A stretch of 44,795 bases of DNA, from positions 1 through 44,795 of the IMG/VR virus record IMGVR_UViG_3300034196_000067, one strand, 5' to 3'. The DNA comes from a virus. The translations under genes and the position numbers were made by a program. Below, in pieces: positions 23,668 to 29,979 of the stretch. The notes beneath the pieces were generated by a model. It saw only the letters and a list, made by a program, of their open reading frames with translations, made no database searches and was not told the origin of the DNA. Numbering within the stretch: position 1 is the stretch's first letter; every line of letters begins with the position of its first letter.

Positions 23668-26600
23668 TTAGTAGGCGAACGGCTTCTTGCGAGTGACTTC
23701 CTTCGGAGGAGCCCCGAACTCCTTGCCGTAGGCGATTCCAGGAATGGGGTGAGCGCCGTGGATGTCGCTCTTCCACGCCTGACTGGCCCCTCGCTGAAGG
23801 GTCTGCTTGAGGCGCTGGTAGTTGAGGCGAGCCATCCAGTCGGTAGACTGGTTGGGGATGTTTCCAGAGCCAGGAAGCATGGGCTCGTGTGTGATTGGCT
23901 GCTCGTGCGTCTTGCCTTTGTTGTTGCGGTTGAACTCCTCCACCAAGGAGTGCGGAACTACGTCTCCTGGATCCCACTGAGAGCTGCCAGGGTCCTTGAT
24001 CCGAGTGTAGTTGGTGAGGCTTCGAACCACGAGCTCGATGTTACGTGGCCGGACGTTTTCGTCCTTGTAGAGCTTCCTGTAGAGCTCGTCGACCAGGTGG
24101 CGCTGCACCCCATGCATGTCCTTGGTGATGTGGAGGAGCTCCTTCGGGTGAATCGGAGCCATCTCATGAGACAAGCTCTCGCCTCGACGCACCTCCGCTC
24201 CAACCACAAGAGCAGGGTTGATTTCTCCTTCTCGAATGTGGTGGTCGATCCCGTTGATGGTAACGACGTGGCCACCAAGACCGGGGTCTGGCTTGATGCC
24301 TGTGACGGTTCCTGTGGTCTTGGCAAGAATGGCTGACCCCTTCAAGATCTTCGGCATCTTGAGTAGGTCCTTCAGTCGTTGAATCCTGGAGACGGAACCA
24401 CCTCCACGGCCCGACGCGATACCTCCGGTGTGGAAGGCATCCATGGCGAGCTGAGTCGCGGGCTCGCCCAAAGCTTGTCCAGCGAGGACGCCGATGTTGG
24501 TCCCCACCGGATGGAGCTTCCCATTCTCATTGAGGCCGAAACACTTAGAGCAGACACCTTCTCCGTGCTGGCACTTGAGAGGGGAGCGGACTTGGATCTT
24601 GGCGTCCTTCCCAAGAACCTGACGCAGGCGATCTACGAGAGCAGGAGTGACCTGTTCCCCCGCCTTGAAAGGCCCGTGGTCCTTGGCCAAGAACCGATCG
24701 TAGACGTCGAGATGGTAGGGATCCTTGGGGTCGAGAGGCATCAGGATGCCGTGCTGCGTTCCACAGTCCTCGCTCGTGATGAGCGTCGAGATTGTGGAGT
24801 TGATGATGTCCTTCGTCATCGCGCCAGGCTCTCTCGTACCGCTGGCGCGCTGGAGAGTTCCCTTGCGGGCGCCGTGCTGGGCGAGCCAGTAGTCTCCGAC
24901 GTCGAGCCCCTCTCCGTAGGACCTGGTGATGGGGAAGGGAACCACGCGGCCCGTAGAATCCTGCACAAGCATCGGGGCTGCGATCATCTGTCGAAGCTGC
25001 TCTGGTTTTCCACGCGCACCGGAGTAGACCATGGCGCCGAGGTGGCTACCTTCTTTTGGCAGCCGCACTCTCGCTGCGGCGTCGAGCTTCTCCGTTGCCT
25101 TGGAGAAGATCTCCACCAGCTTCGCCTCCCTCTCCCATGAATGAAGAGACGGGTCGATCTTTGCTGCTTGATGCTGCGCCTCCGCTACGATCTGGTCGCG
25201 CTCAGGCAGAGGAGCAAAGTCCTTCAGACTGAGAGAGAACCCGTGCTTGAAGGACTGCTCAGTACCCAGATCCTTCAGGTTGTTCACCACCTTGTCGAAC
25301 TCTCCAGGATGCTTCTTGGCGAGCTCGGTGACAATGGAGCCCATTGGCTTCTTGGAGATCTCGAACTCGGGGTCGTAAAGCACTTGCCCCCGCATCGCGA
25401 AATCCCGAGGAAGGCGGGATTCGATCCGTAGACGGCCAAGCGTAGTAGGCCGGTTCCCGACTTGTTCGACTCGGACTACATCTGTGTGAGTCAGGAGTCC
25501 TTTGTCGACCAGGTCTGAGAGCTCATCGACGGTCTTCACGGTCTTGCCGGAATCCTTACCCCATTTGGAGATGAGGTGAAGGCCGAGCAGGAACTCCTGG
25601 GAAGGGATGTGCATCGCGCCGTAGGTCGTGGGAGAGAAGAGGTTCCGTGAAGGGAACATCTTCTTCGCCTCTTCCACCGCTTCTTGGGAAATAGGGACGG
25701 TGCCCGCCATCGTATCGCCGTCGAAGTCGGCGTTGAAGCCGCCACAGACCAGCGGGTGGATCTTGATGGCCTTGCCTTCCACCGTCTTGGGGCGGAACGC
25801 TTGAACCGAGAACTTGTGCAGAGCCGGATCTCTTTTGAGAAGAAGGGGTCGATCCTTCATCACCTCGTCGAGAGCCTTCTTGGCATGATCCGACTGTGCC
25901 TTCATCTCGGACATAGCTTGAGAAGGCGTGTATCCGTAGCGCGAGTGCATATGCGCCACGACGAAGGGCTTGTAGAGCTCCATCGCGGCCACACGGGGAA
26001 GCCCGATCTCGTCGATGTGAAGGGAAGGTTCAGGGACGATGGTGGACCGAATTGACAGGTCCTGCTTCCGCTTGACGAGCTTCTCTTGGAAGTACCCCTC
26101 CTTCGGCTGATCTCCACCGATGAGGTCCACAATACCCTTCAGCTCTCGGTTGTCGAAGCTCTCCTTGTCGTAGATGGGTGTGTAGTCTCCGACAGCCTGT
26201 AGAGCCTTCATGCTGTTCCAGAGCTCGCCGCGGAGCTCGTGGACCATCTCATGCCCATACTTCTCCGCAGGCATGACCTTCATCTTCTCATTCACAAGAC
26301 CCACGGTCTTGTAGAGGTCGTTGAGAGAGCTCTTCGCCACATCACCGCGTGCCGTGGGAGTCACTGGACGGAAAGCAGCCGGCAGGACCGGGATGTTTTG
26401 AAGCACGTAGGCCTCGTGCGGCTTCATGTCGAGGTCCTTCAGTGCCAGAAGGTACTTGAGCGTGCGGTTGCTCTGGTCGCGCTTCGAGCCTCTCTTCGTA
26501 GGAAGCTCCTCCCGCAGCTTCTTGATCTCCTCTTCGACGTTGACGCTCTTCAGAGCGTCTGCGATGGCTCGACCCCCCACCTTCCCGTCGAGGGTGCTCT

Positions 26601-29600: not shown

Positions 29601-29979
29601 GCTTCACGCGCGTGTAGATGCCGGACTTGAGGCGAAGAAGGTGGTCGACTTGATACTCACCCCCGTCCACGATGAACGAGTAGCGAGAGGTGAGCTTGGG
29701 GACCCGAGCGAGTTGGATGGTCGACTTGGAGATGGGCTTGCCCGTGATGTTGTCGATCAGCTCCATCTCCGCCCGGATCGGCACACCCCAAGTCTGTTCG
29801 TTGTGCTTGGCTTGGAGCTGCGAAGCGACATCGTTCGGATCGAGAGTATCTTCCGCCCAGATTCTCTTGAGCGACAGAGTTCTCTGACTCGTCTGGATGG
29901 GGAAGATGCTGGAAATCTGCTGGATGACGCCATTGGTGAGGGTCGTCATCTTGTCGGCGGTCTTAGGCTCACCGGCCAC
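23668..29979 (-). CDS. Fused multisubunit-type RNA polymerase, beta-like N-terminal half + beta'-like C-terminal half in one 2103-aa polypeptide
   Basis: Beta motifs: YSFIVDGGEYQV..RLKSGIYT (cf. GTFIINGAERV..RSPGVYF), GYNFEDGIVISE, LSGRHGNKGIITKILP..LDVLLNPSGVPTRMNIGQVLE, GGQGFGSLELYSLLGH. Beta' motifs: KPEKGGLFDPAIVG..HEPVPNPLFV (clamp N-terminus, Zn cysteines absent), KAIKIHPLVCGGFNADFDGDTMAG (catalytic Mg site), SGARGKPEQLRQMIAAPMLV..GDYWLAQHGARKG (trigger loop/F-helix region). GTG start with GGAG SD. Confidence 0.85.
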   Translation of the reverse strand: MAGEPKTADKMTTLTNGVIQQISSIFPIQTSQRTLSLKRIWAEDTLDPNDVASQLQAKHNEQTWGVPIRAEMELIDNITGKPISKSTIQLARVPKLTSRYSFIVDGGEYQVDHLLRLKSGIYTRVKRNGDLVSEFNLRKGGSKNFDLLLDRKKSLINFKTKSGDAKIPAYPLLKVMGVDDAEMEKSWGKAVFEANKVAQPEAEERALRKFWEKTAPPDIGRAPSMEEMREHIFRYFDDTQLFPDTTKATLGHPFEKVTGGALLAASNKLLKLERREVEPDDRDSLIFKEVVHVEDFIPEKLDKNNFKKRVKNKVLLSIGRKNVISEIMQGGDLFNRPIKEFFTQGGNVSERSEQTNPVQMLSGNFKTTVIAKDYGGIKDPEKVGEEMQGVNPSHFAFLDPMHTPESERTGITLHLGSGVRKEGRSLSTTVVDLKTGKLKDVTVPEFHTAMVVLPDQVKKVDGKYVPIAREVKVKLPGGDISRRPYHEADFLMPTAKAMFSYTSNLIPFLPCDQGNRASMADKQMEQAISLKNREAPLVQSLVRSDNPTHSFEKLIGTSFAAHRAPVDGKVTKITADGVHVHDGKTEHKVQLYNHFPLNDPTTMLHSQPVVKVGDQVKAGQVVADSNFTRNGTLALGTNLHVGYIPYKGYNFEDGIVISESASQKLTSEHLHKLKMDVAPEEDVTSKKKWMSYASHKATSHSKDKLSMLDDDGVIKEGSRVTNGQVLATCLTPNKVKSQIMVERFGNKAIKPWKDKSLTWDSDYPGIVTRVVKSPNGKSVKVFVKTEEAAEIGDKLSGRHGNKGIITKILPDHEMPFVKKPDGTDRPLDVLLNPSGVPTRMNIGQVLETAAGKVAEKTGSPFFVNNFAGSGHDYRKQVVDELAKHGLSDEEEVFDPSDRRRPLGKILVGPQHLLKLKHQVEKKLVVRGGGSDLSDRPYKYDQDMQPVKGGASGGQGFGSLELYSLLGHNARHNLREMTTYKADMQGVDFWRMIQEGREPPPPKIPFAYTKFEGLLRGLGVDVRKEGTSMRLVPMTDREVLKIADNGKNEIRKPLLFTSKGFKPEKGGLFDPAIVGSRGEKWSYIKLHEPVPNPLFVGDKQNKGPIPSLLSLKHGDISVQEVDKIMSGQSTLDGKVGGRAIADALKSVNVEEEIKKLREELPTKRGSKRDQSNRTLKYLLALKDLDMKPHEAYVLQNIPVLPAAFRPVTPTARGDVAKSSLNDLYKTVGLVNEKMKVMPAEKYGHEMVHELRGELWNSMKALQAVGDYTPIYDKESFDNRELKGIVDLIGGDQPKEGYFQEKLVKRKQDLSIRSTIVPEPSLHIDEIGLPRVAAMELYKPFVVAHMHSRYGYTPSQAMSEMKAQSDHAKKALDEVMKDRPLLLKRDPALHKFSVQAFRPKTVEGKAIKIHPLVCGGFNADFDGDTMAGTVPISQEAVEEAKKMFPSRNLFSPTTYGAMHIPSQEFLLGLHLISKWGKDSGKTVKTVDELSDLVDKGLLTHTDVVRVEQVGNRPTTLGRLRIESRLPRDFAMRGQVLYDPEFEISKKPMGSIVTELAKKHPGEFDKVVNNLKDLGTEQSFKHGFSLSLKDFAPLPERDQIVAEAQHQAAKIDPSLHSWEREAKLVEIFSKATEKLDAAARVRLPKEGSHLGAMVYSGARGKPEQLRQMIAAPMLVQDSTGRVVPFPITRSYGEGLDVGDYWLAQHGARKGTLQRASGTREPGAMTKDIINSTISTLITSEDCGTQHGILMPLDPKDPYHLDVYDRFLAKDHGPFKAGEQVTPALVDRLRQVLGKDAKIQVRSPLKCQHGEGVCSKCFGLNENGKLHPVGTNIGVLAGQALGEPATQLAMDAFHTGGIASGRGGGSVSRIQRLKDLLKMPKILKGSAILAKTTGTVTGIKPDPGLGGHVVTINGIDHHIREGEINPALVVGAEVRRGESLSHEMAPIHPKELLHITKDMHGVQRHLVDELYRKLYKDENVRPRNIELVVRSLTNYTRIKDPGSSQWDPGDVVPHSLVEEFNRNNKGKTHEQPITHEPMLPGSGNIPNQSTDWMARLNYQRLKQTLQRGASQAWKSDIHGAHPIPGIAYGKEFGAPPKEVTRKKPFAY

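Follow-up and report, generated by a model that had tools for sequence, protein, structure and literature searches.

A predicted single-chain beta-beta' RNA polymerase encoded by uncultured jumbo phages

Introduction

Can a phage encode the two large subunits of a bacterial-type RNA polymerase (RNAP) as one polypeptide? The question is raised by IMG/VR virus record IMGVR_UViG_3300034196_000067, whose positions 1 to 44,795 (here called the window) include a single open reading frame (ORF) in which motifs of the beta subunit are followed by those of beta'. A preliminary description, made from the letters of the window alone, had read this as a compact, covalent beta-beta' fusion of cellular type, and had proposed checking it by profile searches, by structure prediction and by looking in the reads or the assembly for a hidden frameshift or stop. 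By sequence comparison and modelling, the answer is yes; what such an enzyme would do for the phage is considered after the evidence for the fusion itself.

One reading frame, two modules

The ORF begins with a GTG codon, with a GGAG 7 nt upstream, and runs through 2103 codons with no internal stop, predicting one polypeptide of 235 kDa (Table 1). Pfam profile matches occur in the order Rpb2_3, Rpb2_6 (E = 1.3e-63) and Rpb2_7, at residues 353-987, then Rpb1_1 to Rpb1_5, at 1177-1880 (E = 6e-27 for Rpb1_2). A BLASTP comparison with E. coli K-12 gives the same partition: RpoB 412-931 and 1048-1340 align to residues 255-770 and 777-1024, and RpoC 37-939 and 1127-1346 to residues 1048-1853 and 1850-2075. 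The catalytic NADFDGD loop was read directly in the DNA. The succession of beta and then beta' motifs first proposed for this ORF is borne out. Further Pfam matches at residues 564-642, to Peptidase_M23, Biotin_lipoyl and RnfC_N, were rejected as real domains because these are barrel-sandwich-hybrid families (according to the Pfam descriptions of RnfC_N and ATP-synt_ab_Xtn), and this fold is a known insert of RNAP beta.

The predicted protein has 646 amino acids (aa) less than E. coli beta and beta' summed, in agreement with the earlier estimate of about 650 and with the suggestion that insertions had been trimmed: chiefly lost are, in beta, sequence insertion SI2 (109 aa) and part of the SI1 region and, in beta', most of SI3 and the zinc ribbon.

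The halves are joined without a linker. Residue 1024 is matched by E. coli beta residue 1340 (of 1342), the beta' N-terminal region aligns directly after it, and beta' residue 37 falls at 1048. Alignment with other members of the family, and with the proteins of Salmonella phage Arash and Vibrio phage D69 (discussed below), indicates that about 13 beta' N-terminal residues are absent at the junction; the junction residues themselves are conserved across the family, Arash and D69.

AlphaFold models were made for two overlapping pieces (residues 1-1190 and 1000-2103), using a family alignment of 72 sequences. The first piece has a predicted local distance difference test score (pLDDT) of 84 and a predicted template modelling score (pTM) of 0.71, and matches cyanobacterial, mycobacterial and Thermus beta chains with template modelling (TM) scores of 0.69-0.78 over about 1100 columns. 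Because it superposes on bacterial beta, the first 250 residues, which align poorly in sequence, form a normal lobe and protrusion. The second piece (pLDDT 86.5, pTM 0.82) matches bacterial beta' chains with TM scores of 0.79-0.85. Both the profile searches and the modelling proposed in the preliminary description agree with its reading of the ORF.

In bacterial RNAP, the clamp contains a two-strand sheet formed between the beta and beta' subunits. The corresponding strands of the model, at the end of the beta half (1019-1024) and the start of the beta' half (1027-1032), form a hairpin with pLDDT of about 90; the fusion is predicted to convert the intersubunit sheet into this hairpin.

Conserved and lost sites

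Residue conservation was scored over 100 family members. K794 and K802 of the beta active-site segment are invariant in these, and also in Arash and D69. Together with R516, D653, the NADFDGD loop and the trigger-loop residue H1850, they are conserved at about 100% in the family, and the second zinc site likewise has four invariant cysteines. Judged by these alignments, the catalytic core, comprising the active-site residues, the bridge helix and trigger-loop region, and the second zinc site, is complete and conserved.

Two other sites have changed. The beta' N-terminal zinc ribbon, with its four cysteines (E. coli C70, C72, C85, and C88), has been removed by a clean 33-residue deletion. The absence of these cysteines had been noticed from the window; the ribbon is missing in all 100 family members, and none of 150 more distant representatives has a cysteine at the deletion site. 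In the rifampicin pocket, the family has E in place of E. coli Q513, G or A in place of H526, and T in place of S531. Because these positions are altered, the enzyme would probably be rifampicin-insensitive.

Extent of the family

A one-base error could merge adjacent rpoB and rpoC genes, and an artefact of assembly, frameshift or gene calling was considered for this reason; no specific point in support of one was found. A word-indexed search (clusters built at 90% identity) returned 452 clusters at E<=1e-10. The best 120 of these are nearly all about 2100 aa long, with 46-78% identity to the window protein, while intein-bearing entries among them reach 2400-3400 aa. Homologs lie on contigs of up to 220 kb. 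In 17 IMG/VR contigs, which share a common gene order, the RNAP is one uninterrupted gene of 6.2-6.4 kb, longer where inteins are present. From an exhaustive HMMER search with residues 700-1500 as query, the best 150 representatives of 50%-identity clusters were taken: all 150 span the junction continuously, and 130 are complete in both halves. The frame continues past residue 1470 in the window RNAP and in each of these 130.

An artefact would thus have had to arise alike in 17 or more viral contigs assembled independently of one another, and in assemblies from JGI, ENA, NCBI, and Logan; it would also leave the conserved junction residues and the missing beta' N terminus to be accounted for, and we give it next to no weight. 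The search of other assemblies for a concealed frameshift or stop was in this sense negative. Taken together, the sequence comparisons indicate a fusion that is real and ancient, not an assembly artefact.

Close nucleotide relatives were sought by megablast of both window halves against 50,697 phage records, with no match, and a pattern scan across 185,579 species genomes likewise gave no relative.

Inteins (with LAGLIDADG and Hom_end domains) are present in 22 of the 125 RNAP homologs retrieved, or about one in six, including P0009, P0013, P0034, P0061, and P0083 and loci L010, L012, and L020. They occupy four insertion sites, at window RNAP residues ~401-406, ~838, ~1422 (just after NADFDGD), and ~1851-1862 (in the trigger loop), all in conserved and partly catalytic motifs. 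A homolog may carry up to three; P0013 has 3387 aa, and one representative has 4739 aa.

A phage gene or a cellular one

An identical RNAP protein is found on JGI contig Ga0370509_0000001, of 209,442 bp, in which the window corresponds to positions 43789-88583; a 109-kb Logan contig carries a near-identical phage as well, and relatives are on contigs of 165-220 kb. The size of about 45 kb first assumed for the phage is therefore far too low. Besides the RNAP gene, genes for a large terminase (PHROG E = 9e-62), a capsid protein, and a portal lie in the window, along with those for a superfamily 2 (SF2) helicase, a uracil-DNA glycosylase (UDG)-family protein, and a DnaB-like helicase. Beyond it, one flank has a primase, a DNA polymerase A, and a RecA-like protein, and the other has tail genes, including one for a sheath-like protein of 1105 aa. 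The contig is thus that of a jumbo phage with a sheath-like tail protein.

It might still be asked whether the gene is a cellular rpoBC, either on a bacterial contig or recently captured by a phage from a host whose rpoB and rpoC are fused as in Helicobacter or Wolbachia. The best PDB fold matches are bacterial, and such fusions do exist: a passage of PMC7483510, citing Zakharova 1999, places them in the Helicobacteraceae and Wolbachia. As in the phage protein, the beta C terminus is joined head-to-tail to the beta' N terminus, and the bacterial fusions are functional enzymes. However, the bacterial RpoBC fusions are cellular enzymes, with alpha, omega, sigma, and a zinc ribbon, while the phage RNAP has lost the ribbon, has no partners that could be found in 63 kb (see below), and is surrounded by the terminase, capsid, portal, sheath-like and replication genes just listed. 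Its relatives are on IMG/VR viral contigs, and none turned up in the species genomes scanned. Pairwise identity of the fused clade to E. coli and S. aureus is 25-35%, far below that between these two bacterial phyla (52-71%), which rules out recent capture from a host. A cellular origin of this kind seems very improbable, and the suggestion of a covalent, cellular-type beta-beta' in a phage, with both catalytic halves intact, is upheld.

Relation to known phage RNA polymerases

Among cultured phages, Salmonella phage Arash (180,819 bp) and the Vibrio phages D69, D148, and D181 (about 187 kb) stand closest. Beside the portal gene, Arash gp206 and Vibrio D69_0261 encode a protein of 1525-1527 aa that comprises beta and beta' up to about residue 1470; the rest of beta' is a separate protein of about 606-609 aa (gp216 in Arash). 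Arash and D69 share with the fused RNAP the same beta-beta' junction, the loss of the zinc ribbon, a position just downstream of the portal gene, and a similar genome size. They differ in that their beta' is cut after about residue 1470, whereas the fused clade keeps the whole enzyme in one chain, and in the active-site loop, AADYDGD instead of NADFDGD; identity of the fused clade to Arash and D69 is 25-38%. Since the junction and the ribbon deletion are common to both groups, the fusion is older than their split. The beta' of Rhizobium phage RHph_Y65 retains the ribbon.

The Arash paper calls gp206 "beta" only, with no mention of a fusion (PMC10585845). Public annotation also masks it: Arash gp206 (L002) is labelled "subunit beta," despite also holding the catalytic N half of beta', and the Vibrio phage proteins (L003) "hypothetical."

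Phage multisubunit RNAPs had been described at the outset as all split into fragments, which does not hold: both subunits are unfragmented in the tailed phages of the mReC group (Weinheimer and Aylward, 2020; PMC7481178) and also in Cobetia phage Carin-5. The mReC and Carin-5 enzymes resemble the fused RNAP in having bacterial-like beta and beta' with an NADxDGD loop, in their distance from cellular enzymes, and in their structural-gene surroundings. The mReC enzymes are nonetheless made from two ORFs, not one. All 97 contigs in the mReC tables list beta and beta' separately, at 887-1563 aa, with no single ORF of about 2100 aa; six sample ids of the present family were looked up, and none is in the RNAP tables (PMC7481178). 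By the definition used in that survey (at least 800 aa matching COG0085 and COG0086, an NADxDGD motif, and a tailed-phage contig), the fused RNAP, with more than 1000 aa in each half, would be counted. A contig from sample 3300012683, which is also the source of a viral contig with a fused RNAP, is listed as "IMGVR_reference with no detected mReC RNAP" (PMC7481178), although the match is by sample and the two contigs may not be one. Given this listing, the survey screen may have missed single-ORF enzymes.

RNAPs of the phiKZ/AR9 type are, like the fused RNAP, beta/beta' relatives in jumbo phages without alpha or omega. They are far more divergent, consist of four or five polypeptides, and typically come as two sets per genome; the virion carries one of the two enzymes (PMC7598289, PMC7824862). 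Matches of the window RNAP to PHROGs of this type have E values of 1e-26 to 1e-10, against 1e-79 and 1e-125 for its two best PHROGs, which are unannotated and, from their profile lengths, are taken to be bacterial-type beta and beta'.

A number of supposed phage records (OR844998.1 [L032], OR846602.1, AFYI01000006.1, and others) contain rpoB and rpoC genes of the ordinary bacterial kind; some are marked UNVERIFIED_ORG and some bear Salmonella enterica names. These records have the look of bacterial contigs and could account for PHROGs 24349 and 25354, which carry no annotation.

Large single-chain RNAPs are also known in other phages: the N4 virion RNAP, crAss-like gp66, the P23-45 tape-measure fusion, and YonO. 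In gp66, YonO, and P23-45, as in the fused RNAP, both barrels are in one chain. The N4 enzyme, however, is T7-like, and the other three are two-barrel enzymes, either minimal or like RNA-dependent RNA polymerases, without recognizable full-length beta/beta' homology. None of these classes was found among the sequence and fold matches of the window RNAP.

No description of a fully fused phage beta-beta' was found in full-text literature, including reviews of jumbo phages and their RNAPs up to 2026. The proposal that it represents a distinct solution can be kept in part: the fully fused form is apparently undescribed, but its junction is already present in the cultured Arash and D69.

Gene neighborhood

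The coordinates of the RNAP and of features around it are given in Table 1.

Table 1. Features of the fused RNAP gene and its surroundings (window positions).
Feature	Position	Strand	Basis or remark
Fused beta-beta' RNA polymerase gene, 2103 aa plus stop codon	23668..29979	-	ORF translation; Pfam Rpb2 then Rpb1; exact match to P0001 on the 209-kb contig
Beta-like module, residues 1-1024: lobe and protrusion, fork, double-psi barrel with flap, C-terminal clamp part	26908..29979	-	BLASTP to E. coli RpoB 412-1340; AlphaFold
Beta'-like module, residues 1025-2103 plus stop codon	23668..26907	-	BLASTP to E. coli RpoC 37-939, 1127-1346; AlphaFold
Fusion junction, residues 1019-1032	26884..26925	-	Last beta strand VDVRKE, two-residue turn, first beta' strand SMRLVP
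Beta active-site segment GDKLSGRHGNKG, residues 792-803	27571..27606	-	K794/K802 = E. coli K1065/K1073
Catalytic NADFDGD loop, residues 1416-1422	25714..25734	-	DNA read directly; invariant in family
Zinc-ribbon deletion site, between residues 1074 and 1075	26755..26760	-	E. coli beta' 65-97 absent
Second zinc site, C1739, C1803, C1810, C1813	24541..24765	-	Alignment; = E. coli C814, C888, C895, C898
Conserved 357-aa gene, putative tail-hub/spike oligonucleotide/oligosaccharide-binding (OB) domain	22594..23667	-	Pfam Phage_base_V E=0.0015; PHROG baseplate E=1.5e-4 (weak)
Portal protein gene, 701 aa	31917..34022	-	PHROG portal families; ~2 kb upstream of RNAP
137-aa protein, eight conserved cysteines	30421..30834	+	Divergent from RNAP gene; same position in all family loci
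93-aa helix-turn-helix protein	30789..31070	+	Overlaps end of 137-aa gene
SF2 (ResIII/DEAD) helicase	38783..40270	+	
UDG-superfamily protein	40598..41575	+	E=4e-30
Gene with bacterial HORMA-domain match	41589..42245	+	E=6e-4 (weak)
299-aa protein, glycine-zipper transmembrane domain	18308..19207	-	Pfam Rick_17kDa_Anti, E=1.7e-5

The arrangement around the RNAP is kept in all relatives. On the upstream side are a helicase (on the opposite strand), proteins of 469, 175, 312, and 243 aa, and the portal; between portal and RNAP are a few small opposite-strand genes; past the RNAP are the 357-aa protein, proteins of 835, 287, 299, and 156 aa, an RNase HII (opposite strand), and the large terminase. 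The RNAP is thus flanked in every relative by the portal gene and a tail-hub-like gene, and its synteny with the portal extends over 16 loci, Arash (portal gp204), and D69. The 357-aa gene begins at the base right after the RNAP stop codon and adjoins the RNAP in all family loci; its weak Phage_base_V match recurs in a homolog on an NCBI contig.

The 137-aa protein has the cysteine pattern FC..., C...DC..C, WEC..C, GC...C in alignments, and no match in Pfam or PHROGs. It might conceivably bind zinc and partner the polymerase that lacks the ribbon. The 93-aa protein has a Pfam match (E = 0.002) to phage regulators of the CII type.

The SF2 helicase has a fixed place in all relatives, divergent from the structural genes on the portal side, with counterparts at this position in Arash (gp198c) and Vibrio phage D69 (D69_0252). 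Arash particle preparations are rich in several helicases, including Gp217, which adjoins the gene for the C-terminal part of beta'. A link between helicase and polymerase is possible.

Downstream of the RNAP in the same operon, the 299-aa glycine-zipper protein is less conserved than the genes next to it. The UDG-superfamily gene stands at the start of the replication module, followed immediately by the gene with the weak HORMA-domain match. A tRNA scan of the window found none.

A sigma-70-like promoter match is present in the 190-bp gap upstream of the RNAP, though consensus promoter and terminator scans were near background, and k-mer counts over 2.1 kb of intergenic DNA gave no recurrent promoter motif.

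Transcription partners and a possible role

The reading we prefer, with a probability of roughly 0.6, is that the gene encodes a single-chain core of bacterial type that is independent of alpha, insensitive to rifampicin, dependent on a specificity factor, and at least partly packaged in virions. The covalent link would take over the assembly role of the alpha dimer, so that the enzyme could fold and work without alpha or omega; promoter specificity would come from a sigma-like or analogous factor of the phage, whose gene would lie in another part of the genome. The RNAP would be made late, with the structural proteins, and the packaged fraction would start phage transcription in the next host.

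Partners were looked for in 63 kb (30%) of the 209,442-bp contig, which has a single RNAP locus in this part. Pfam or PHROGs was run on about 50 window proteins, along with tblastn and a custom hidden Markov model built from the Arash-type sigma family, and each window protein family was compared by hhalign with E. coli RpoA, RpoZ, and the C-terminal half of RpoD, and with the Arash-type and Carin-5 sigmas. No homolog of alpha, omega, or sigma was found in the window, consistent with the earlier remark that alpha and omega are not nearby, and none in the rest of the 63 kb, which was covered by precomputed Pfam matches and the Arash-sigma profile only.

The sole scorer among the window families in the hhalign comparison was the 93-aa helix-turn-helix protein, with 48% probability to region 4 of the Arash-type sigma. 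As it has no homolog in related loci, it was rejected as a partner of the core. The earlier idea of a minimal sigma-programmable core stays a hypothesis: no sigma was found in the 63 kb, and the clamp-helix positions that contact sigma in E. coli lack conservation in the family.

Sigma factors are known in phages that share parts of this organization. Arash gp10 belongs to the sigma-70 family (a Sigma70_r3 match, and a weak one to Sigma70_r2) and is 44% identical to a Vibrio-phage protein at the same genome position, and Carin-5 has a sigma-beta-beta' operon. A large-database search with Arash gp10 returned Arash-like sigmas only, and the Arash-type sigma alignment has no stretch conserved enough for a pattern search of distant loci.

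One alternative is a hybrid holoenzyme, in which the fused core would borrow alpha, omega, or sigma from the host and redirect them to phage promoters. The empty partner search would fit this, as would the full-length fold, close to bacterial beta and beta', and the retention of alpha by the bacterial RpoBC fusions. It is hard to reconcile with an identity of only 25-35% to bacterial subunits and the loss of the zinc ribbon. In the 100 family members, moreover, neither the E. coli clamp-helix residues that bind sigma region 2 nor the E. coli flap-tip contacts to sigma-70 and the flap-tip helix are conserved, and the relatives (Arash, the Vibrio phages, and Carin-5) have sigmas of their own. 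RNAPs of the phiKZ type form no stable association with the alpha, sigma, or omega of the host (PMC13282480). A hybrid is for these reasons unlikely, though it deserves more weight than a cellular origin.

The idea of packaging comes from the place of the gene in the structural region and from the particle proteome of Arash. In the latter, Gp206 is the most detected protein (128 unique peptides, 3516 spectra), RNAP peptides outnumber those of the major capsid protein, and both Gp216 and the sigma Gp10 are also detected (PMC10585845). The same preparation, however, contained 116 proteins, including ribonucleotide reductases and RNA ligases (PMC10585845); with so many proteins, metabolic enzymes among them, contamination from infected cells is likely. 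Arash is besides a distant relative, and by this analogy its proteome is weak evidence for packaging in the fused family.

The main rival is accordingly the same enzyme without packaging: host RNAP would transcribe the early genes, and the fused RNAP, with its phage factor, the middle or late ones, in the manner of T7 RNAP or the non-virion RNAPs of phiKZ-like phages. Packaging in the fully fused family is suggested indirectly, by analogy and gene position, the analogy being to the probably contaminated Arash particles; the RNAP begins a transcription unit of its own after the 190-bp gap with its promoter match; and Arash and D69 have a single RNAP set each. What speaks for packaging instead is the invariable position of the gene between portal and tail-hub-like genes, and the excess of RNAP over capsid peptides in Arash, with sigma detected alongside. 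Sequence by itself does not separate the two models, and the unpackaged one is a serious contender at somewhat less than even odds.

Several observations already mentioned weigh against the packaged, alpha-independent core that we favor: the failure to find a sigma or other partner in the 30% of the genome covered, the loss of the sigma-binding clamp-helix residues, and the breadth of the Arash proteome. To these can be added that the fully fused family consists of uncultured phages, with no cultured member; that Arash, from which the particle data come, is only about 33% identical to the window RNAP; and that a cluster of divergent small genes, in addition to the 190-bp gap, separates the portal operon from the RNAP gene, so that co-expression with the structural genes is only assumed. 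The Helicobacter beta-beta' fusion, finally, coexists with alpha, so that fusion alone is no proof of alpha-independence. A stronger form of the proposal, in which a self-sufficient core without alpha or omega is packaged in the capsid, ejected with the DNA, and starts transcription without any host enzyme, can be put forward only tentatively.

Significance

The fully fused phage beta-beta' is apparently undescribed, and abundant in metagenomes: the clade is large, with at least 150 clusters at 50% identity, and the main survey of phage multisubunit RNAPs did not pick it up. If the stronger form of the proposal is correct, the enzyme would be the first RNAP core of cellular type known to function as one polypeptide, and could serve structural work and engineering as a natural single-chain scaffold. 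An E. coli beta-beta' tethered by engineering was reportedly functional (in work ascribed to Severinov et al., 1997). An RNAP of 235 kDa, encoded by one gene and probably insensitive to rifampicin, might also be of use in expression systems and in cryo-electron microscopy.

In the usual view, bacterial RNAP depends on the alpha dimer as the platform for its assembly. A fused clade with no alpha in sight is well suited to asking whether a covalent link between the two subunits can stand in for this platform.

The fused form also completes a series of fission and fusion states: one chain; the Arash type, with beta plus the N-terminal part of beta' in one protein and the C-terminal part of beta' in another; the mReC type, with two; and the phiKZ type, with four or five. 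This series bears on the evolution of polymerases in phages, and the cultured Arash and Vibrio D69 group make several of these questions directly testable.

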